DNA of 64,000 nt, taken from the NCBI RefSeq assembly GCF_041248615.1, contig NZ_CP158426.1; one strand, written 5' to 3'. Under the pieces are notes generated by a model that was not told where the DNA came from, searched no databases, and saw nothing but the letters and a program-made list of their open reading frames with translations. Source of the DNA: Escherichia coli. Lineage in GTDB: Bacteria > Pseudomonadota > Gammaproteobacteria > Enterobacterales > Enterobacteriaceae. The number at the start of each line of letters is the position of its first letter. Within the stretch, counting starts at the first letter, position 1. Shown here piece by piece: positions 27,071 to 60,597 of the stretch. Made by a program: the position numbers and the translations under genes.

Positions 27071-28048
27071 TTATGCCCGGTCAACGCTAAAGGCGATGAC
27101 TTCAGCCAGTGTCTCCGCGCCCAGCGCCAACATCACCAGACGATCAACACCTAATGCCACGCCGGAACAGTCAGGCATACCGACTTTCAAGGCTTCAATC
27201 AGATTCTGGTCAATGGGGTGCTGCGGCAAACCGCGCGCCGCGCGCTTACGGTTATCTTGTTCAAAGCGTTGTTGCTGCTCACGGGCATCCGTCAATTCAT
27301 GGAAACCATTCGCCAGCTCAATACCTTTATAATAAACCTCAAAGCGTTCAGCGACCCGATGATCTTCGGTACTGATTTGCGCCAGTGATGCCTGGCTGGC
27401 TGGAAAGTGGTACACAAAGGTCGGTTTTTCTTTACCAATATTTGGCTCTACGCCAAAGGTAAACAGCAATTGTAGCAACGTGTCGCGGTCTTCTTCGGTA
27501 TCTGCAACGTTGCTCAAATCCAGTTTCGCTGCCACTTCCCGCAGTTGCATTTTGTCGGCAGAGAGTGGGTCAATTTCCAGATAACGCAAGAAAGCTTGTT
27601 GATAAGAAAGGCTTTCTGCTGCCGGGCAGTCCAGCACCTGTTGTAAGAGATCGTCCACCTCGTTCATCAACCGGTACATATCATAGTGCGGTCGATACCA
27701 CTCAAGCATAGTGAACTCAGGGTTGTGATAACGCCCCATCTCTTCATTACGGAAGCTGCGGCACAGCTGGAATACCGGCCCACAACCAGCAACCAGCAGG
27801 CGTTTCATATGGTATTCCGGGCTGGTCATTAACCAGAGATTCATCCCCTGCGAATGCCCAGGGCCAACGAAACGTGTCTCAAACGGGACCAAATGAATAT
27901 CGGTTACCGTCGCCTGGCTCATACAAGGCGTCTCCACCTCCAGCACTCCACGATCGGCAAAGAAACGACGGATCTCCGCCATAATCGCCGCGCGTTTTAA
28001 TAAGTTAGGAATGGATGCGCTCGGCTGCCAGGATGCCGTTTCGCTCAT
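27071..28048 (-). CDS. epmA: EF-P Lys34 beta-lysyltransferase EpmA (325 aa from ATG at 28048)
   Basis: Translation [30 protein letters not shown]... (class II aaRS-like catalytic core without an anticodon-binding domain); matches PoxA/EpmA. Confidence 0.95.
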
Positions 28049-34424: not shown

Positions 34425-34991
34425 TTACTTCACGCGAGAGACGTATTCACCAGAGCGGGTATCCACTTTGATGACTTCGCCGATTTGTACAAACAGCGGA
34501 ACTTTAACCACAGCGCCAGTAGACAGGGTAGCCGGTTTGCCGCCAGTACCTGCGGTATCACCTTTCAGGCCCGGATCGGTATCCACGATTTCCAGTTCAA
34601 CGAAGTTCGGCGGAGTAACGGAGATCGGCTGACCATTCCACAGAGTTACGATACACTCTGCCTGATCCAGCAGCCATTTAGCGTTGTCGCCAATTGCTTT
34701 TGCATCAGCAGACAGCTGCTCGAAAGTTTCGTTGTTCATGAAGTGCCAGAACTCACCGTCGTTGTACAGGTAAGTCAGGTTCATATCGACAACATCAGCG
34801 CCTTCAGCGGAATCAGTAGATTTGAAGGTTTTTTCTACGCGAGTACCGGTCAGCAGACGACGCAGTTTAACGCGAGCAAATGCCTGGCCTTTACCCGGTT
34901 TTACGAATTCACTCGCTTCAACCGCGTAAGGTTCGCCGTCTAACATGATTTTAAGACCAGCACGAAAATCGTTGCTATAGTACGTTGCCAT
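34425..34991 (-). CDS. efp: Translation elongation factor P (188 aa)
   Basis: Translation [47 protein letters not shown]... including the KPGKG loop carrying the modified Lys34. Confidence 0.97.
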
Positions 34992-35032: not shown

Positions 35033-36061
35033 ATGGCGCATATTGTAACCCTAAATACCCCATCCAGAGAAGATTGGTTAACGCAACTTGCCGATGTTGT
35101 GACCGATCCTGATGAACTTCTGCGTCTTTTGAATATAGACGCGGACGAAAAACTGTTGGCCGGACGCAGCGCCAAAAAGCTGTTTGCCCTGCGTGTGCCC
35201 CGCTCATTTATCGATCGCATGGAGAAAGGCAATCCGAACGATCCGCTTTTGCGTCAGGTAATTACCTCGCAAGATGAGTTTGTCGTCGCGCCCGGATTCT
35301 CCACCGACCCGCTGGAAGAACAGCACAGCGTAGTGCCAGGTTTGTTGCATAAATACCACAACCGGGCGCTTTTGCTGGTCAAAGGCGGCTGCGCGGTAAA
35401 TTGCCGCTATTGCTTCCGTCGCCACTTCCCCTATGCCGAAAATCAGGGCAACAAGCGTAACTGGCAAACTGCACTTGAGTATGTTGCTGCGCATCCGGAA
35501 CTGGACGAGATGATTTTCTCCGGCGGCGATCCGCTGATGGCGAAAGATCACGAGCTGGACTGGTTGCTCACACAACTGGAAGCCATCCCGCATATCAAAC
35601 GTCTGCGGATTCACAGCCGTCTGCCGATTGTGATCCCGGCACGCATCACAGATGCGCTGGTTGAACACTTTTCACATTCTACGCTGCAAATCTTGCTGGT
35701 GAATCACATCAACCATGCCAATGAGGTAGATGAAACATTCCGTCAGGCGATGGCTAAGTTGCGCCGGGTAGGCGTTACTTTGCTGAACCAGAGCGTTCTG
35801 TTACGTGGTGTGAACGATAACGCGCAAACGCTGGCAAACCTGAGTAATGCGTTGTTCGATGCGGGCGTGATGCCGTATTACCTGCATGTGCTCGATAAAG
35901 TACAGGGCGCGGCGCATTTTATGGTGAGTGATGACGAAGCACGGCAGATTATGCGTGAGTTGCTGACACTGGTGTCGGGATATCTGGTGCCTAAACTGGC
36001 GCGAGAAATTGGCGGCGAACCCAGCAAAACGCCGCTGGATCTCCAGCTACGCCAGCAGTAA
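35033..36061 (+). CDS. epmB: EF-P lysine 2,3-aminomutase EpmB (342 aa)
   Basis: Translation with radical-SAM CxxxCxxC (CAVNCRYCFRRHF); matches YjeK/EpmB, divergent from efp. Confidence 0.95.
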   Translation: MAHIVTLNTPSREDWLTQLADVVTDPDELLRLLNIDADEKLLAGRSAKKLFALRVPRSFIDRMEKGNPNDPLLRQVITSQDEFVVAPGFSTDPLEEQHSVVPGLLHKYHNRALLLVKGGCAVNCRYCFRRHFPYAENQGNKRNWQTALEYVAAHPELDEMIFSGGDPLMAKDHELDWLLTQLEAIPHIKRLRIHSRLPIVIPARITDALVEHFSHSTLQILLVNHINHANEVDETFRQAMAKLRRVGVTLLNQSVLLRGVNDNAQTLANLSNALFDAGVMPYYLHVLDKVQGAAHFMVSDDEARQIMRELLTLVSGYLVPKLAREIGGEPSKTPLDLQLRQQ

Positions 36062-36364: not shown

Positions 36365-36379
36365 GGTAATGACTCCAAC

Positions 36380-36883
36380 TTATTGATAGTGTTTTATGTT
36401 CAGATAATGCCCGATGACTTTGTCATGCAGCTCCACCGATTTTGAGAACGACAGCGACTTCCGTCCCAGCCGTGCCAGGTGCTGCCTCAGATTCAGGTTA
36501 TGCCGCTCAATTCGCTGCGTATATCGCTTGCTGATTACGTGCAGCTTTCCCTTCAGGCGGGATTCATACAGCGGCCAGCCATCCGTCATCCATATCACCA
36601 CGTCAAAGGGTGACAGCAGGCTCATAAGACGCCCCAGCGTCGCCATAGTGCGTTCACCGAATACGTGCGCAACAACCGTCTTCCGGAGCCTGTCATACGC
36701 GTAAAACAGCCAGCGCTGGCGCGATTTAGCCCCGACGTATCCCCACTGTTCGTCCATTTCCGCGCAGACGATGACGTCACTGCCCGGCTGTATGCGCGAG
36801 GTTACCGACTGCGGCCTGAGTTTTTTAAATGGCGGAAAATCGTGTTGAGGCCAACGCCCATAATGCGGGCGGTTGCCCGGCAT
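36380..36883 (-). CDS. insB: IS1 InsB reading frame (167 aa; expressed as an InsAB' fusion by -1 frameshifting)
   Basis: ORF translation [64 protein letters not shown]... matches IS1 InsB. Confidence 0.95.
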
Positions 36884-37077
36884 CCAACGCCATTCATGGC
36901 CATATCAATGATTTTCTGGTGCGTACCGGGTTGAGAAGCGGTGTAAGTGAACTGCAGTTGCCATGTTTTACGGCAGTGAGAGCAGAGATAGCGCTGATGT
37001 CCGGCAGTGCTTTTGCCGTTACGCACCACCCCGTCAGTAGCTGAACAGGAGGGACAGCTGATAGAAACAGAAGCCAC
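36802..37077 (-). CDS. insA: IS1 InsA (91 aa) transposition inhibitor / N-terminal part of the transposase
   Basis: ORF translation [43 protein letters not shown]... matches IS1 InsA (zinc-finger plus HTH). Confidence 0.95.
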
Positions 37078-37132
37078 TGGAGCACCTCAAAAACACCATC
37101 ATACACTAAATCAGTAAGTTGGCAGCATCACC

Positions 37133-48420: not shown

Positions 48421-48526
48421 CAGAAACACAGAAAAGAAGCGATTTGCCGCAATCTTAAGCAGTTGAATCGCTTTTACTGAAATTAGGTTGACGAGATGTG
48501 CAGATTACGGTTTAATGCGCCCCGTT

Positions 48527-48602
48527 GCCCGGATAGCTCAGTCGGTAGAGCAGGGGATTGAAAATCCCCGTGTCCTTGGTTCGATTCCGAGTCCGGGCAC
48601 CA
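48527..48602 (+). tRNA. pheU: tRNA-Phe (GAA anticodon)
   Basis: GCCCGGATAGCTCAGTCGGTAGAGCAGGGGATTGAAAATCCCCGTGTCCTTGGTTCGATTCCGAGTCCGGGCACCA, a 76-nt cloverleaf with encoded CCA. Confidence 0.95.
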
Positions 48603-48612
48603 AATTCATATA

Positions 48613-48640
48613 AACGGACCTCCACGGAGGTCCGTTTTTC
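48613..48640 (+). terminator. pheU Rho-independent terminator
   Basis: acggacctcc-acgg-aggtccgt hairpin followed by TTTTCGTTT. Confidence 0.8.
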
Positions 48641-49218
48641 GTTTCAGGACGCCACAATTTAAGCGTTCTGCCTAAAAATCATTTCTACCGAACTCAACCA
48701 AATTCTCCCCACAACACCAGCATTTTGCGGGTATATCCCAATTCGGGAAAATTTGTTCCTGAGCTATAGCGCTGACTGACGTGAAATGTCGTGCGACCCC
48801 GTGATGCTGTTGAATGTCAAATGACGTCATCAGGAGCGTAACGCATCCATAAAGCACAACACCGGTCTGAACGCCGACTGATGAGATTTTCTGAATGAGA
48901 ACAAAGAGAAATGTATCAGTCCGCTTGCTCATGCAAAGACTAACAATCCATTAAAATAGTAAGCGCTCCGGACAATTTTCCATGGATTATTTTCTGAACA
49001 TTTTTCTTTGGCAAAGATGATGAATTTTGATGGTAAGGAATATTACTTCTGGTTCTCAGTAAAATCCTTTCTCAATACTATGTGATCAAGAAGTTTATGT
49101 CTGGTAAAAATAACGTCTTGCATTCACCAATAATATGTAAATAAACCCATCTATAGATGGTAAAAATAGGTTGTGGCAATTATCATTGCATCATTCCCTT
49201 TTCGAATGAGTTTCTATT

Positions 49219-50757
49219 ATGCAACAACCTGTAGTTCGCGTTGGCGAATGGCTTGTTACTCCGTCCATAAACCAAATTAGCCGCAATGGGCGTCAACTTA
49301 CCCTTGAGCCGAGATTAATCGATCTTCTGGTTTTCTTTGCTCAACACAGTGGCGAAGTACTTAGCAGGGATGAACTTATCGATAATGTCTGGAAGAGAAG
49401 TATTGTCACCAATCACGTTGTGACGCAGAGTATCTCAGAACTACGTAAGTCATTAAAAGATAATGATGAAGATAGTCCTGTCTATATCGCTACTGTACCA
49501 AAGCGCGGCTATAAATTAATGGTGCCGGTTATCTGGTACAGCGAAGAAGAGGGAGAGGAAATAATGCTATCTTCGCCTCCCCCTATACCAGAGGCGGTTC
49601 CTGACACAGATTCTCCCTCCCACAGTCTTAACATTCAAAACACCGCAACGCCACCTGAACAATCCCCAGTTAAAAGCAAACGATTCACTACCTTTTGGGT
49701 ATGGTTTTTTTTCCTGTTGTCGTTAGGTATCTGTGTAGCACTGGTAGCGTTTTCAAGTCTTGATACACGTCTTCCGATGAGCAAATCGCGTATTTTGCTC
49801 AATCCACGCGATATTGACATTAATATGGTAAATAAAAGTTGTAACAGCTGGAGTTCCCCGTATCAGCTCTCTTACGCGATAGGCGTGGGTGATTTGGTGG
49901 CGACATCACTTAACACCTTCTCCACCTTTATGGTGCATGACAAAATCAACTACAACATTGATGAACCGAGCAGTTCCGGTAAAACATTATCTATTGCGTT
50001 TGTTAATCAGCGCCAATACCGTGCTCAACAATGCTTTATGTCGGTAAAATTGGTAGACAATGCAGATGGTTCAACCATGCTGGATAAACGTTATGTCATC
50101 ACTAACGGTAATCAGCTGGCGATTCAAAATGATTTACTCCAGAGTTTATCAAAAGCGTTAAACCAACCGTGGCCACAACGAATGCAGGAGATGCTCCAGC
50201 AAATTTTGCCTCATCGTGGTGCGTTATTAACTAATTTTTATCAGGCACATGATTATTTACTGCATGGCGATGATAAATCATTGAACCGTGCCAGTGAATT
50301 ATTAGGTGAGATTGTTCAATCATCCCCAGAATTTACCTACGCGAGAGCAGAAAAAGCATTAGTTGATATCGTGCGCCATTCTCAACATCCTTTAGATGAA
50401 AAACAATTAGCAGCACTGAACACAGAAATAGATAACATTGTTACACTACCGGAATTGAATAACCTGTCCATTATATATCAAATAAAAGCGGTCAGTGCTC
50501 TGGTAAAAGGTAAAACAGATGAGTCTTACCAGGCGATAAATACTGGCATTGATCTTGAAATGTCCTGGCTAAATTATGTGTTGCTTGGCAAGGTTTATGA
50601 AATGAAGGGGATGAACCGGGAAGCAGCTGATGCATATCTCACCGCCTTTAATTTACGCCCAGGGGCAAACACCCTTTACTGGATTGAAAATGGTATATTC
50701 CAGACTTCTGTTCCTTATGTTGTACCTTATCTCGACAAATTTCTCGCTTCAGAATAA
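49219..50757 (+). CDS. cadC: ToxR-like membrane-integrated transcriptional activator CadC (512 aa)
   Basis: Translation MQQPVVRVGEWLVTPSINQISRNGRQLTLEPRLIDLLVFF... (winged-helix, single TM, periplasmic sensor); contains the PPPIP motif at codons 120-124 (49576-49590). Confidence 0.95.
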   Translation: MQQPVVRVGEWLVTPSINQISRNGRQLTLEPRLIDLLVFFAQHSGEVLSRDELIDNVWKRSIVTNHVVTQSISELRKSLKDNDEDSPVYIATVPKRGYKLMVPVIWYSEEEGEEIMLSSPPPIPEAVPDTDSPSHSLNIQNTATPPEQSPVKSKRFTTFWVWFFFLLSLGICVALVAFSSLDTRLPMSKSRILLNPRDIDINMVNKSCNSWSSPYQLSYAIGVGDLVATSLNTFSTFMVHDKINYNIDEPSSSGKTLSIAFVNQRQYRAQQCFMSVKLVDNADGSTMLDKRYVITNGNQLAIQNDLLQSLSKALNQPWPQRMQEMLQQILPHRGALLTNFYQAHDYLLHGDDKSLNRASELLGEIVQSSPEFTYARAEKALVDIVRHSQHPLDEKQLAALNTEIDNIVTLPELNNLSIIYQIKAVSALVKGKTDESYQAINTGIDLEMSWLNYVLLGKVYEMKGMNREAADAYLTAFNLRPGANTLYWIENGIFQTSVPYVVPYLDKFLASE

Positions 50758-51122
50758 GTAACTCCCGGGTTGATTTATGCTCGGCAATATTTATTGTTGA
50801 GTTTTTGTATGTTTCTGTTGGTATAATATGTTGCGGTAATTTATTTGCCGCATAATTTTTATTACATAAATTTAACCAGAAAATGTCCCGCAATCCATTG
50901 TAAACATTGAATGTTTATCTTTTCATGATATCAACTTGCGATCCTGATGTGTTAATAAAAAACCTCAAGTTCTCACTTACAGAAACTTTTGTGTTATTTC
51001 ACCTAATCTTTAGGATTAATCCTTTTTTCGTGAGTATTCTTAGCGCCAGTTTGGTCTGGTCAGGAAATAGTTATACATCATGACCCGGACTCCAAATTCA
51101 AAAATGAAATTAGGAGAAGAGC

Positions 51123-52457
51123 ATGAGTTCTGCCAAGAAGATCGGGCTATTTGCCTGTACCGGTGTGGTTGCCGGTAATATGATGGGGAGCGGTATTGCA
51201 TTATTACCTGCGAACCTAGCAAGTATCGGTGGTATTGCTATCTGGGGTTGGATTATCTCTATTATTGGTGCAATGTCGCTGGCGTATGTATATGCCCGAC
51301 TGGCAACAAAAAACCCGCAACAAGGTGGCCCAATTGCTTATGCCGGAGAAATTTCCCCTGCATTTGGTTTTCAGACAGGTGTTCTTTATTACCATGCTAA
51401 CTGGATTGGTAACCTGGCGATTGGTATTACCGCTGTATCTTATCTTTCCACCTTCTTCCCAGTATTAAATGATCCTGTTCCGGCGGGTATCGCCTGTATT
51501 GCTATCGTCTGGGTATTTACCTTTGTAAATATGCTCGGCGGTACCTGGGTAAGCCGTTTAACCACTATTGGTCTGGTGCTGGTTCTTATTCCTGTGGTGA
51601 TGACTGCTATTGTTGGCTGGCATTGGTTTGATGCTGCAACTTATGCAGCTAACTGGAATACTGCGGATACCACTGATGGTCATGCGATCATTAAAAGTAT
51701 TCTGCTCTGCCTGTGGGCCTTCGTGGGTGTTGAATCCGCAGCAGTAAGTACTGGTATGGTTAAAAACCCGAAACGTACCGTTCCGCTGGCAACCATGCTG
51801 GGTACTGGTTTAGCAGGTATTGTTTATATCGCTGCGACTCAGGTGCTTTCCGGTATGTATCCGTCTTCTGTAATGGCAGCTTCCGGTGCTCCGTTTGCAA
51901 TCAGTGCTTCAACTATCCTCGGTAACTGGGCTGCGCCGCTGGTTTCTGCATTCACCGCCTTTGCGTGCCTGACTTCTCTGGGCTCCTGGATGATGTTGGT
52001 AGGCCAGGCAGGTGTACGTGCCGCTAACGACGGTAACTTCCCGAAAGTTTATGGTGAAGTCGACAGCAACGGTATTCCGAAAAAAGGTCTGCTGCTGGCT
52101 GCAGTGAAAATGACTGCCCTGATGATCCTCATCACTCTGATGAACTCTGCCGGTGGTAAAGCATCTGACCTGTTCGGTGAACTGACCGGTATCGCAGTAC
52201 TGCTGACTATGCTGCCGTACTTCTACTCTTGCGTTGACCTGATTCGTTTTGAAGGCGTTAACATCCGCAACTTTGTCAGCCTGATCTGCTCTGTACTGGG
52301 TTGCGTGTTCTGCTTCATCGCGCTGATGGGCGCAAGCTCCTTCGAGCTGGCAGGTACCTTCATCGTCAGCCTGATTATTCTGATGTTCTACGCTCGCAAA
52401 ATGCACGAGCGCCAGAGCCACTCAATGGATAACCACACCGCGTCTAACGCACATTAA
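51123..52457 (+). CDS. cadB: Lysine/cadaverine antiporter CadB (444 aa)
   Basis: Translation MSSAKKIGLFACTGVVAGNMMGSGIALLPANLASIGG...; APC-family transporter. Confidence 0.95.
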   Translation: MSSAKKIGLFACTGVVAGNMMGSGIALLPANLASIGGIAIWGWIISIIGAMSLAYVYARLATKNPQQGGPIAYAGEISPAFGFQTGVLYYHANWIGNLAIGITAVSYLSTFFPVLNDPVPAGIACIAIVWVFTFVNMLGGTWVSRLTTIGLVLVLIPVVMTAIVGWHWFDAATYAANWNTADTTDGHAIIKSILLCLWAFVGVESAAVSTGMVKNPKRTVPLATMLGTGLAGIVYIAATQVLSGMYPSSVMAASGAPFAISASTILGNWAAPLVSAFTAFACLTSLGSWMMLVGQAGVRAANDGNFPKVYGEVDSNGIPKKGLLLAAVKMTALMILITLMNSAGGKASDLFGELTGIAVLLTMLPYFYSCVDLIRFEGVNIRNFVSLICSVLGCVFCFIALMGASSFELAGTFIVSLIILMFYARKMHERQSHSMDNHTASNAH

Positions 52458-52536: not shown

Positions 52537-54684
52537 ATGAACGTTATTGCAATATTGAATCACATGGGGGTTTATTTTAAAGAAGAACCCATCCGTGAAC
52601 TTCATCGCGCGCTTGAACGTCTGAACTTCCAGATTGTTTACCCGAACGACCGTGACGACTTATTAAAACTGATCGAAAACAATGCGCGTCTGTGCGGCGT
52701 TATTTTTGACTGGGATAAATATAATCTCGAGCTGTGCGAAGAAATTAGCAAAATGAACGAGAACCTGCCGTTGTACGCGTTCGCTAATACGTATTCCACT
52801 CTCGATGTAAGCCTGAATGACCTGCGTTTACAGATTAGCTTCTTTGAATATGCGCTGGGTGCTGCTGAAGATATTGCTAACAAGATCAAGCAGACCACTG
52901 ACGAATATATCAACACTATTCTGCCTCCGCTGACCAAAGCATTGTTTAAATATGTTCGTGAAGGTAAATATACTTTCTGTACTCCTGGTCACATGGGCGG
53001 TACTGCATTCCAGAAAAGCCCGGTAGGTAGCCTGTTCTATGATTTCTTTGGTCCGAACACCATGAAATCTGATATTTCCATTTCAGTATCTGAACTGGGT
53101 TCTCTGCTGGATCACAGTGGTCCACACAAAGAAGCAGAACAGTATATCGCTCGCGTCTTTAACGCAGACCGCAGCTACATGGTGACCAACGGTACTTCCA
53201 CTGCGAACAAAATTGTTGGTATGTACTCTGCTCCGGCAGGCAGCACCATTCTGATTGACCGTAACTGCCACAAATCGCTGACCCACCTGATGATGATGAG
53301 CGATGTTACGCCAATCTATTTCCGCCCGACCCGTAACGCTTACGGTATTCTTGGTGGTATCCCACAGAGTGAATTCCAGCACGCTACCATTGCTAAGCGC
53401 GTGAAAGAAACACCAAACGCGACCTGGCCGGTACATGCCGTAATTACCAACTCTACCTATGATGGTCTGCTGTACAACACCGACTTCATCAAGAAAACAC
53501 TGGATGTGAAATCCATCCACTTTGACTCCGCGTGGGTGCCTTACACCAACTTCTCACCGATTTACGAAGGTAAATGCGGTATGAGCGGTGGCCGTGTAGA
53601 AGGGAAAGTGATTTACGAAACCCAGTCTACTCACAAACTGCTGGCGGCGTTCTCTCAGGCTTCCATGATCCACGTTAAAGGTGACGTAAACGAAGAAACC
53701 TTTAACGAAGCCTACATGATGCACACCACCACTTCTCCGCACTACGGTATCGTGGCGTCCACTGAAACCGCTGCGGCGATGATGAAAGGCAATGCAGGTA
53801 AGCGTCTGATCAACGGTTCCATTGAACGTGCGATCAAATTCCGTAAAGAGATCAAACGTCTGAGAACGGAATCTGATGGCTGGTTCTTTGATGTATGGCA
53901 GCCGGATCATATCGATACCACTGAATGCTGGCCGCTGCGTTCTGACAGCACCTGGCACGGCTTCAAAAACATCGATAACGAGCACATGTATCTTGACCCG
54001 ATCAAAGTCACCCTGCTGACTCCGGGGATGGAAAAAGACGGCACCATGAGCGACTTCGGTATTCCGGCCAGCATCGTGGCGAAATACCTCGACGAACATG
54101 GCATAGTTGTTGAGAAAACCGGTCCGTATAACCTGCTGTTCCTGTTCAGCATCGGTATCGATAAGACCAAAGCACTGAGCCTGCTGCGTGCTCTGACAGA
54201 CTTCAAACGTGCGTTCGATCTGAACCTGCGTGTGAAAAACATGCTGCCGTCTCTGTATCGTGAAGATCCTGAATTCTATGAAAACATGCGTATTCAGGAA
54301 CTGGCTCAGAATATCCACAAACTGATTGTTCACCACAATCTGCCGGATCTGATGTATCGCGCATTTGAAGTTCTGCCGACCATGGTAATGACTCCGTATG
54401 CTGCGTTCCAGAAAGAGCTGCACGGTATGACCGAAGAAGTTTACCTCGACGAAATGGTAGGTCGTATTAACGCCAATATGATCCTTCCGTATCCGCCGGG
54501 AGTTCCTCTGGTAATGCCGGGTGAAATGATCACCGAAGAAAGCCGTCCGGTTCTGGAGTTCCTGCAGATGCTGTGTGAAATCGGCGCTCACTATCCGGGC
54601 TTTGAAACCGATATTCACGGTGCATACCGTCAGGCTGATGGCCGCTATACCGTTAAGGTATTGAAAGAAGAAAGCAAAAAATAA
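52537..54684 (+). CDS. cadA: Inducible lysine decarboxylase CadA (715 aa from ATG at 52537)
   Basis: Translation MNVIAILNHMGVYFKEEPIRELHRALERLNFQIVYPNDRDDLL... with the PLP-binding fold; the 715-aa form matches recalled CadA. Confidence 0.97.
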   Translation: MNVIAILNHMGVYFKEEPIRELHRALERLNFQIVYPNDRDDLLKLIENNARLCGVIFDWDKYNLELCEEISKMNENLPLYAFANTYSTLDVSLNDLRLQISFFEYALGAAEDIANKIKQTTDEYINTILPPLTKALFKYVREGKYTFCTPGHMGGTAFQKSPVGSLFYDFFGPNTMKSDISISVSELGSLLDHSGPHKEAEQYIARVFNADRSYMVTNGTSTANKIVGMYSAPAGSTILIDRNCHKSLTHLMMMSDVTPIYFRPTRNAYGILGGIPQSEFQHATIAKRVKETPNATWPVHAVITNSTYDGLLYNTDFIKKTLDVKSIHFDSAWVPYTNFSPIYEGKCGMSGGRVEGKVIYETQSTHKLLAAFSQASMIHVKGDVNEETFNEAYMMHTTTSPHYGIVASTETAAAMMKGNAGKRLINGSIERAIKFRKEIKRLRTESDGWFFDVWQPDHIDTTECWPLRSDSTWHGFKNIDNEHMYLDPIKVTLLTPGMEKDGTMSDFGIPASIVAKYLDEHGIVVEKTGPYNLLFLFSIGIDKTKALSLLRALTDFKRAFDLNLRVKNMLPSLYREDPEFYENMRIQELAQNIHKLIVHHNLPDLMYRAFEVLPTMVMTPYAAFQKELHGMTEEVYLDEMVGRINANMILPYPPGVPLVMPGEMITEESRPVLEFLQMLCEIGAHYPGFETDIHGAYRQADGRYTVKVLKEESKK

Positions 54685-54742: not shown

Positions 54743-56200
54743 ATGAAAACACCCTCACAGCCGCGCGCGATATACTATATCGTGGCGATCCAAATCTGGG
54801 AGTACTTCAGTTTTTACGGCATGCGTGCCTTACTCATTCTCTATCTCACCCATCAGCTTGGTTTTGATGATAACCATGCCATCAGCCTGTTCAGCGCATA
54901 TGCATCTCTGGTTTACGTTACCCCTATTCTCGGCGGCTGGCTTGCCGACCGCCTGCTCGGCAACCGCACTGCAGTGATTGCCGGCGCGCTGTTAATGACC
55001 CTTGGCCATGTGGTGCTGGGCATTGATACAAATTCAACTTTTAGCCTGTATCTGGCGCTGGCAATCATTATTTGTGGCTACGGTTTATTCAAATCAAACA
55101 TCAGCTGTTTGCTTGGCGAGCTCTACGACGAGAACGATCATCGACGTGATGGCGGTTTTTCGCTGCTGTATGCTGCGGGCAATATCGGTTCTATCGCAGC
55201 CCCAATCGCCTGCGGCCTGGCTGCTCAGTGGTATGGATGGCATGTTGGCTTTGCCCTTGCGGGTGGCGGCATGTTTATCGGTTTGTTGATTTTCTTAAGC
55301 GGTCATCGTCATTTCCAGTCCACGCGTAGTATGGATAAAAAAGCGCTAACAAGCGTTAAATTTGCCTTACCAGTATGGAGCTGGTTAGTGGTGATGCTCT
55401 GTTTAGCCCCTGTATTTTTTACCCTGCTGCTGGAGAACGACTGGTCAGGATATTTGCTGGCGATCGTTTGCCTCATTGCCGCACAAATCATTGCCCGCAT
55501 GATGATCAAATTCCCCGAACACCGCCGTGCTCTTTGGCAAATTGTATTGTTGATGTTTGTCGGGACGTTGTTCTGGGTACTGGCACAACAGGGCGGCAGT
55601 ACCATCAGCTTGTTTATCGATCGCTTTGTGAATCGTCAGGCATTCAATATTGAAGTACCTACAGCACTATTCCAGTCGGTGAATGCCATTGCGGTGATGC
55701 TCGCTGGGGTTGTTCTGGCCTGGCTGGCGTCGCCAGAAAGCCGCGGCAATTCAGCATTGCGCGTCTGGCTGAAGTTTGCCTTTGGCTTACTGCTGATGGC
55801 TTGTGGCTTTATGTTGCTGGCATTTGATGCCCGACATGCAGCGGCTGGCGGTCAAGCGTCAATGGGCGTGATGGTATCCGGGCTGGCGCTAATGGGCTTT
55901 GCTGAACTCTTTATTGACCCGGTGGCGATTGCGCAAATCACGCGTCTGAAAATGTCTGGCGTATTAACCGGTATTTATATGCTGGCAACAGGCGCGGTCG
56001 CCAACTGGCTGGCAGGCGTCGTGGCACAGCAGACGACAGAGTCGCAAATTAGCGGTATGGCAATTGCCGCTTACCAGCGATTCTTTTCTCAGATGGGAGA
56101 GTGGACGTTGGCTTGTGTCGCGATCATCGTGGTATTGGCCTTTGCTACCCGTTTTCTGTTTAGCACGCCGACGAATATGATACAGGAGAGTAACGATTAA
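54743..56200 (+). CDS. dtpC: Proton-dependent dipeptide/tripeptide permease DtpC (485 aa)
   Basis: Translation [36 protein letters not shown]... (POT/PTR2 family signature). Confidence 0.9.
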
Positions 56201-56436: not shown

Positions 56437-57954
56437 ATGTCTGAACGAGAAACACGGGGAGCCAATGAGGCTATTGATTTTAACGATGAACTGAGAAATC
56501 GCCGCGAAAAACTGGCGGCACTACGTCAGCAAGGTGTGGCGTTTCCCAATGATTTTCGCCGCGACCATACCTCTGACCAGTTGCACGAAGAGTTTGATGC
56601 GAAGGATAACCAGGAACTGGAATCCTTAAACATTGAAGTCTCGGTTGCTGGCCGAATGATGACCCGTCGTATCATGGGGAAAGCCTCCTTTGTAACGTTG
56701 CAGGATGTCGGTGGCCGTATTCAACTGTACGTCGCACGAGATAGCCTGCCAGAAGGTGTTTATAACGATCAGTTTAAAAAATGGGATCTGGGTGACATTA
56801 TCGGTGCCCGCGGTACGCTGTTTAAGACGCAAACGGGTGAGCTTTCCATTCACTGTACTGAGCTGCGCCTGCTGACTAAAGCACTACGTCCTTTACCAGA
56901 TAAATTCCATGGTCTGCAGGATCAGGAAGTCCGTTATCGTCAACGTTATCTGGACCTCATCGCTAACGATAAATCCCGTCAAACGTTTGTTGTCCGTTCA
57001 AAAATTCTGGCCGCTATCCGTCAGTTCATGGTCGCGCGCGGCTTTATGGAAGTAGAAACCCCGATGATGCAGGTAATTCCAGGTGGGGCATCTGCTCGCC
57101 CGTTTATTACCCATCATAACGCTCTGGATTTAGATATGTACCTGCGTATCGCGCCAGAGCTGTATCTGAAACGTCTGGTTGTAGGCGGTTTTGAACGGGT
57201 ATTCGAAATCAACCGTAACTTCCGTAATGAAGGTATTTCTGTTCGCCATAATCCTGAGTTCACAATGATGGAACTCTACATGGCGTATGCGGATTACCAC
57301 GATTTGATTGAACTGACAGAGTCACTGTTCCGCACCCTGGCACAAGAGGTTCTGGGTACCACTAAAGTCACTTATGGCGAGCATGTGTTTGATTTCGGCA
57401 AACCGTTTGAAAAACTCACCATGCGCGAAGCAATCAAAAAATATCGTCCAGAAACCGATATGGCCGACCTGGATAATTTTGATGCCGCTAAAGCATTAGC
57501 TGAATCTATTGGTATTACGGTAGAGAAAAGCTGGGGGCTGGGACGTATTGTCACGGAGATCTTTGATGAAGTGGCAGAAGCACATCTGATTCAGCCAACC
57601 TTTATTACGGAATATCCCGCAGAAGTGTCACCGCTGGCGCGCCGTAATGATGTTAACCCGGAAATCACCGACCGATTTGAATTCTTCATCGGTGGTCGTG
57701 AAATCGGTAATGGTTTTAGCGAATTAAACGACGCAGAAGATCAGGCTGAACGTTTCCAGGAACAGGTTAACGCTAAAGCTGCAGGTGACGACGAAGCCAT
57801 GTTCTATGACGAAGATTACGTGACTGCGCTGGAATATGGTTTGCCACCAACCGCTGGTCTGGGTATTGGTATCGACCGAATGATTATGCTGTTTACAAAC
57901 AGTCATACTATTCGCGACGTTATTCTCTTCCCGGCGATGCGCCCACAGAAATAA
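56437..57954 (+). CDS. lysU: Lysine--tRNA ligase, heat-inducible isoform LysU (505 aa from ATG at 56437)
   Basis: Translation MSE(R/Q)[29 protein letters not shown]... (class II aaRS); assigned lysU rather than lysS by its position next to the cad/dtpC genes. Confidence 0.95.

Positions 57955-59332: not shown

Positions 59333-60597
<1,265 letters not shown>

Follow-up and report, generated by a model that had tools for sequence, protein, structure and literature searches.

The polyproline stall site of cadC and its proximity to efp, epmB and epmA in Escherichia coli

The cad and efp genes of the window

The stretch of Escherichia coli DNA analysed here, 64,000 nucleotides that we call the window, matches positions 4803546-4867545 of NZ_LT599825.1 (isolate NRZ14408) without a single difference (100% identity over 64,000 bases) and, two IS insertions aside, runs collinear with, but in the opposite orientation to, K-12 MG1655 at ~4.35-4.386 Mb. 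At its centre of interest lies cadC (49219-50757, plus strand), a 512-aa open reading frame that carries this name in RefSeq and encodes the membrane-integrated, pH- and lysine-responsive activator of cadBA. The encoded protein contains the winged-helix OmpR/PhoB-type DNA-binding domain at residues 24-100 (Trans_reg_C, PF00486, E=3e-19) and the periplasmic sensor domain at residues 191-324 (CadC_C1, PF18500, E=4.5e-63), with a hydrophobic segment that begins at about residue 156, N-terminal to CadC_C1, such that a transmembrane helix and a sensor domain are both in place. It matches K-12 CadC at 507 of 512 residues (the substitutions are A129D, I276V, E308Q, T325M and K328Q), and the gene sits directly upstream of cadBA, as befits an orthologue of K-12 cadC.

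Between the DNA-binding domain and the hydrophobic segment runs a proline-rich cytoplasmic linker (about residues 108-155; 49540-49683, plus strand), and here, at 49576-49590 on the plus strand, the bases cct ccc cct ata cca translate in frame to PPPIP, codons 120-124 of cadC. The first nine of these bases (49576-49584) are three consecutive in-frame proline codons, CCT CCC CCT, preceded by the serine codon TCG, and are the same as the published CCU(P120)-CCC(P121)-CCU(P122) (PMC8129111). None of the five substitutions falls within PPPIP, the nearest being A129D, and codons 115-127 agree base for base with K-12. The earlier note had placed PPPIP at CadC codons 120-124 and had set an alignment to CadC beforehand as the check; translation, reading frame and the RefSeq name of the gene all bear the placement out, as does the identity to K-12 CadC over codons 115-127. 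A second consecutive-proline motif, ATPPEQ (P145-P146, 49651-49656, plus strand), lies in the same linker, for which the literature likewise counts two polyproline motifs (PMC5811046; PMC5936718). In gene, position, amino acids and codons the site is thus the K-12 CadC PPPIP of Ude et al. 2013 and Krafczyk et al. 2021; the second PP motif and the surroundings (cadBA, efp, epmA and epmB) are shared as well, and what sets it apart from the K-12 system is limited to strain-level differences, namely the five CadC substitutions and an IS1 in yjeJ.

The GC content of cadC is 0.42, as compared to 0.507 for the window, and the gene together with its flanks (48500-51500) forms an AT-rich tract of GC 0.38-0.42. 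Judged from base composition, this is consistent with a horizontal origin of the module. Downstream of cadC on the plus strand follow the CadC-activated operon cadB (51123-52457) and cadA (52537-54684), whose products are identical to those of K-12, then dtpC (54743-56200) and lysU (56437-57954). The last of these was named lysS by PGAP, yet it occupies the lysU position and its product is identical to K-12 LysU at 504 of 505 residues; from the sequence, the name reflects an annotation ambiguity between the two LysRS paralogues.

The genes for EF-P and its modification lie on the other side of cadC. The 188-aa product of efp (34425-34991, minus strand) is identical to the K-12 protein, matches all three EF-P families (PF08207, PF01132 and PF09285) and has Lys34 in the K-12 context KPGK34GQ. 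Divergent from efp is epmB (yjeK; 35033-36061, plus strand), encoding a 342-aa lysine 2,3-aminomutase annotated as such and matching the radical SAM family PF04055, and about 6.4 kb further on, as in K-12, is epmA (yjeA/poxA; 27071-28048, minus strand), encoding the 325-aa EF-P-(R)-beta-lysine ligase. EpmA matches tRNA-synt_2 (PF00152) only and is thus a class II aaRS core, a LysRS paralogue without the anticodon-binding domain; it differs from K-12 at one residue. EpmB and EpmA are both full length and intact, and the EF-P beta-lysylation system is present in this sense. EpmB carries nine amino-acid differences from K-12, including the cluster C212H/A214S/R215H (24 nucleotide changes in all), while the adjacent efp has only three changes, all of them silent; epmB may be a recombinant or divergent allele, as far as this pattern of substitutions indicates.

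Thus the window contains full-length copies of efp, epmB, epmA, cadB, cadA, dtpC and lysU. Measured from the PPPIP motif, efp is 14,585 bp away, epmB 13,515 bp and epmA 21,528 bp, as compared to ~14.1, ~13.1 and ~21.1 kb in K-12, so that the figure of ~15 kb given in the earlier note for efp/epmAB describes efp and epmB well and understates the distance to epmA. The same note had the client and its translation-rescue machinery together in one window. This is true of efp, epmB and epmA; it does not extend to EpmC (yfcM), the co-sensor LysP or the EF-P paralogue EfpL, none of which is among the 66 annotated features, and EpmC is therefore not linked to the other beta-lysylation genes in this window. 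EpmC is dispensable for EF-P activity (PMC4176338).

The interval between epmB and cadC holds eleven unrelated protein genes on both strands, one IS1 and one tRNA, and the genes between the efp side and cadC include groESL, aspA, dcuA and dsbD. The IS1 (36365-37132), which is not in K-12, splits yjeJ between epmB and yjeI and lengthens the efp-cadC spacing by ~0.8 kb relative to K-12. The tRNA is tRNA-Phe pheU (48527-48602, plus strand), followed by the integrase remnant yjdQ (48800-48962, plus strand), which we located by blastn of K-12 yjdQ; the two stand directly upstream of cadC, on the side facing efp, and mark an island-integration hotspot. Elsewhere in the window, a copy of ISEc31 (IS3 family) at 59341-60597, between yjdI and dcuS, is likewise not in K-12, and K-12 yjeN-yjeO were not found in the window, where mscM adjoins yjeM (~25200-25350). 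The first 36,000 bases (1-36000) are rich in genes for translation and RNA functions (rlmB, rnr, hflX, hfq, miaA, tsaE, queG, three tRNA-Gly genes, orn, rsgA, epmA, efp and epmB), which is the normal K-12 arrangement.

The stall motif in published work and across genomes

The published account of this site is detailed. CadC activates cadBA at low pH in the presence of lysine, which is sensed via LysP. According to PMC5936718, two consecutive-proline motifs in the unstructured CadC linker stall ribosomes and are relieved by EF-P only; the same paper, citing Ude 2013, describes an EF-P-independent CadC-PPPIP/AAAIS variant that is present at 11-14 instead of 3-5 copies per cell and switches PcadBA on aberrantly. 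The codons matter as well as the residues. The choice of CCU-CCC-CCU after Ser TCG is important, since silent recoding to 3xCCG raises output threefold and lowers the lysine threshold, so that cadBA is already induced when there is too little lysine for this to be of use (PMC8129111). The serine at position -1 (SPPP in CadC) belongs to a class that weakens PPP stalling (PMC4176338), which fits the reported importance of the slow codons CCU-CCC-CCU. An epmA mutant lacks CadA activity (PMC5078493), and EfpL contributes to the Cad response too (PMC11611912). Stalling at the site and its relief by modified EF-P were established experimentally on the identical K-12 sequence (PMC5936718, PMC8129111, PMC4176338). 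The earlier note had described PPPIP as the EF-P-dependent motif that limits CadC copy number and so tunes cadBA, which matches the K-12 work and, given the identical codons, would apply here; its label of established biology was apt, as every step of the mechanism is already in print, and nothing in our analysis speaks against it.

Within E. coli the motif is strongly conserved. By megablast, 5,046 of 5,426 complete genomes (93%) have exactly the same 42 nucleotides over codons 114-127, a count from a query that is blind to any genome in which a SNP falls among the central bases of those 42; a word-11 search recovers the region in 5,238 genomes, 161 more than the search seeded with an exact 28-mer, and about 3.5% of genomes are without the region or have a truncated cadC. 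In both of the variant genomes sampled (n=2) the change is a synonymous CCT->CCC at P122 (49582-49584), with PPPIP kept. The resulting CCT CCC CCC lengthens the run of C from five to six, in up to 161 genomes, of which two were sampled; ribosome slippage has been tied to CCC and CCU runs in published work.

Beyond E. coli, PPPIP occurs in the cryptic-clade Escherichia and in E. whittamii; E. albertii has SSPTSIP at the motif position and no PPP at all, and E. fergusonii PPALP, followed downstream by a PPP. The sequence in Salmonella diarizonae is SPPPPI. In K. pneumoniae a PPP stands at another point of the linker, and Raoultella and most Klebsiella have no PPP at the motif position. We considered whether PPP is a conserved feature of the CadC family and rejected this, as its position is not conserved and most orthologues are without it. 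From this distribution, PPPIP is a lineage-specific device rather than a defining CadC trait.

On a different reading of the same data, the triproline would owe its existence mainly to the composition of a disordered, rapidly evolving linker rich in Pro and Ala; E. coli would only later have come to depend on it, and it would not be a tuning device conserved in, and built for, the CadC family. The CadC linkers are hypervariable and hardly alignable and contain on average 16% proline, the exact motif is confined to E. coli, the cryptic clades and E. whittamii while E. albertii and E. fergusonii differ, and PPP, where it recurs (14 of the 52 non-redundant linkers, as compared to 8.2 expected from per-linker shuffling), does not occupy homologous positions. 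That last figure cuts both ways, however, because an excess over the shuffles hints at recurrent selection for some polyproline, although its nominal P of about 0.02 ignores relatedness and makes it only a hint. Against a by-product origin we also set the identity of both the motif and its synonymous codons in 93% of E. coli genomes, the retention of PPP in both variants examined, and the published observation that amino-acid changes and silent changes each deregulate the system. Taken together, we regard a mainly compositional origin as rather unlikely.

The neighbourhood of cadC and efp

The earlier note had gone on to propose that the linkage of cadC to efp and epmAB in one window is itself a functional connection. 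Our data argue against this: the linkage is found only in Escherichia, it is broken in 32% of E. coli genomes, and the number of EF-P clients in the window is at chance level.

We examined 76 cadC loci from a one-genome-per-species collection (GTDB), each with up to 10 kb of flank, by tblastn with all 55 window proteins. The order cadC-cadB-cadA is universal in these loci, most of the Enterobacterales loci have dtpC after cadA, and 18 loci then have lysU, including those of Escherichia, Klebsiella, Raoultella, Buttiauxella and Pseudescherichia. The upstream side behaves quite differently. Among the 76 loci, the flank aspA-dcuA-cutA-dsbD-yjdC, which leads to groESL and efp, is found only in Escherichia; none of the E. 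coli upstream neighbours of cadC appears within 10 kb in the ~60 other genera or species, and in none of the loci do the flanks of up to 10 kb around cadC contain efp, epmB or epmA. The efp-cadC distance in other genera is thus gauged from the differing neighbours, a proxy set by the 10-kb flanks. In Salmonella, for example, cadC is preceded by hcaT-glyA-hmp and the cad module is followed by glrR; K. pneumoniae has a fimbrial usher and an lpxL-like gene upstream of cadC; and Yersinia ruckeri has putA-putP upstream and a gene for a D-serine/D-alanine/glycine transporter (cycA-type) downstream. Such different flanks in each genus point to the cad module as a separately placed unit. Thus the neighbourhood comprising efp, epmB and (further out) epmA does not include cadC, which belongs to a separately mobile cadC-cadBA-dtpC(-lysU) module located elsewhere in other genera, and a coupled cadC-efp neighbourhood conserved across genera was not found in this collection.

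The linkage is also unstable within the species. Of 5,426 complete E. coli genomes, 3,685 have an uninterrupted yjdC-pheU-cadC junction; in the other 1,741 (32%) it is broken at the 3' end of pheU. In strain 01_3327, for example, a 59-kb island carrying LEE, efa1, nleB and nleE occupies the junction and puts cadC about 73 kb from efp.

Nor do the genes around efp include an excess of polyproline proteins. A PPP is no rarity in a protein of 512 aa. PPP is present in two of the 55 complete coding sequences of the window, those of CadC and AmiB, where composition predicts 1.6 PPP sites and where the 96 PPP proteins of E. coli (PMC4176338) lead one to expect ~1.3 per 64 kb; the chance of at least one PPP protein within 15 kb on either side of efp is about 46%. 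Enrichment of the window in EF-P clients was accordingly rejected, two proteins against 1.3-1.6 being what chance provides, and no client excess marks a coupled neighbourhood here. AmiB (amiB, 13723-15060, minus strand) has eight consecutive prolines at residues 130-137 (14650-14673, minus strand), ~20 kb from efp, with efp lying between it and cadC; this is reported to be the longest proline run in E. coli and the site of a sharp ribosome-profiling pause (PMC4402525). Like CadC, other E. coli EF-P clients such as LepA, Rnb, NlpD and AmiB have at least three prolines and a stalling strength modulated by upstream context. CadC differs in that its pause has a demonstrated regulatory role, in the stoichiometry with LysP, whereas none is cited for AmiB.

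The position of lysU calls for separate comment, as the earlier note had counted it, with cadBA, among the genes that the client and its rescue machinery influence. For EF-P this is plausible: in a SILAC comparison LysU is among the proteins that drop 2- to 7-fold upon deletion of efp (PMC4140641), and the protein has one diproline, LPPT. For CadC the claim is not supported, as our literature search found no report of CadC control of lysU. Moderately low pH induces LysU, which is less cadaverine-sensitive than LysS, and EpmA is itself a LysRS paralogue (PMC5078493). A LysU-like LysRS gene follows cadC-cadB-cadA-dtpC in 14 non-Escherichia species, with an upstream flank that differs by genus. 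That lysU keeps its place behind cadBA-dtpC in several genera is in line with a role in support of cadaverine production, with LysU as a cadaverine-tolerant LysRS, and not with a link to efp.

Two observations do run counter to an incidental linkage. The exact PPPIP and the proximity of the cad genes to efp are confined to the same clade (E. coli, the cryptic clades and E. whittamii), and the lysine-related genes epmA, epmB, cadB, cadA and lysU all fall within one 31-kb stretch. One could therefore imagine that the proximity is adaptive, a loose lysine-centred neighbourhood kept in Escherichia for reasons of gene dosage, co-amplification or chromosomal domain. Such a neighbourhood would take in epmB, a lysine user, epmA, the LysRS paralogue, and cadB, cadA and lysU, all at 27-58 kb of the window; in 5,343 of 5,426 E. 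coli genomes the interval between efp and the pheU junction is collinear; motif and linkage share their restriction to the Escherichia clade; LysU falls when efp is deleted; and amplicons around ampC can include epmA and efp and occasionally reach lysU. Yet the arrangement is without conservation outside Escherichia, islands of up to 59 kb split it in nearly a third of E. coli genomes, the genes in between (groESL, aspA, dcuA, dsbD) are unrelated and lie on both strands, PPP clients are no denser than chance, and the lysine- and EF-P-related genes epmC, lysP and efpL are absent from the window annotation. Moreover, EF-P acts in trans and is abundant. It is a diffusible protein of ~40,000 copies per cell (PMC11611912), and there is thus no mechanistic reason for its gene to lie near that of a client. 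We consider an adaptive neighbourhood very unlikely, and slightly less likely again the fuller scenario in which the cad module was captured beside pheU, the resulting proximity of ~15-20 kb was selected, and PPPIP arose together with it. The proximity of cadC and efp in the genome is real but incidental.

An integrated view of the stall site

Overall, we believe that 49576-49590 is, with high probability, the known EF-P-dependent stall site of cadC, and that the nearness of efp, epmB and epmA is incidental to it. The sequence, codons, gene identities, distances and conservation come from our analysis, and stalling, EF-P dependence and copy-number control come from the literature; that the linkage is incidental we infer. 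The general course of events at this site would be as follows. Consider a ribosome that reaches Pro120-Pro121-Pro122 of CadC, three prolines read from the non-optimal codons CCU-CCC-CCU in a disordered cytoplasmic linker. Peptide-bond formation would slow there and translation would pause, and EF-P, the product of efp, beta-lysylated on Lys34 by EpmB and EpmA, would relieve the pause only in part. The pause would in turn hold CadC at few molecules per cell, in balance with the co-sensor LysP, and with that balance cadBA would be switched on only when the pH is low and lysine is sufficient. That efp, epmB and epmA lie 13.5-21.5 kb away would have no role in this mechanism and would be a by-product of the site that the cadC-cadBA-dtpC-lysU module occupies beside pheU.

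As a fact about E. coli the motif itself is not new, CadC PPPIP being the founding example of EF-P-dependent translation and one that has been published down to its codons. A selected proximity in Escherichia, if true, would be only moderately interesting. The negative result is the more useful one: the location of cadC near efp, epmB and epmA is no ground for assuming a functional neighbourhood, nor should annotation pipelines take it as a sign of coupling. The movement of lysU with the cad module in several genera is a minor comparative by-product of the analysis. Finally, the restriction of PPPIP to one lineage, together with the polyproline runs found at different points of the CadC linker in other Enterobacterales, may be of use in understanding how CadC copy number is set where the motif is lacking.
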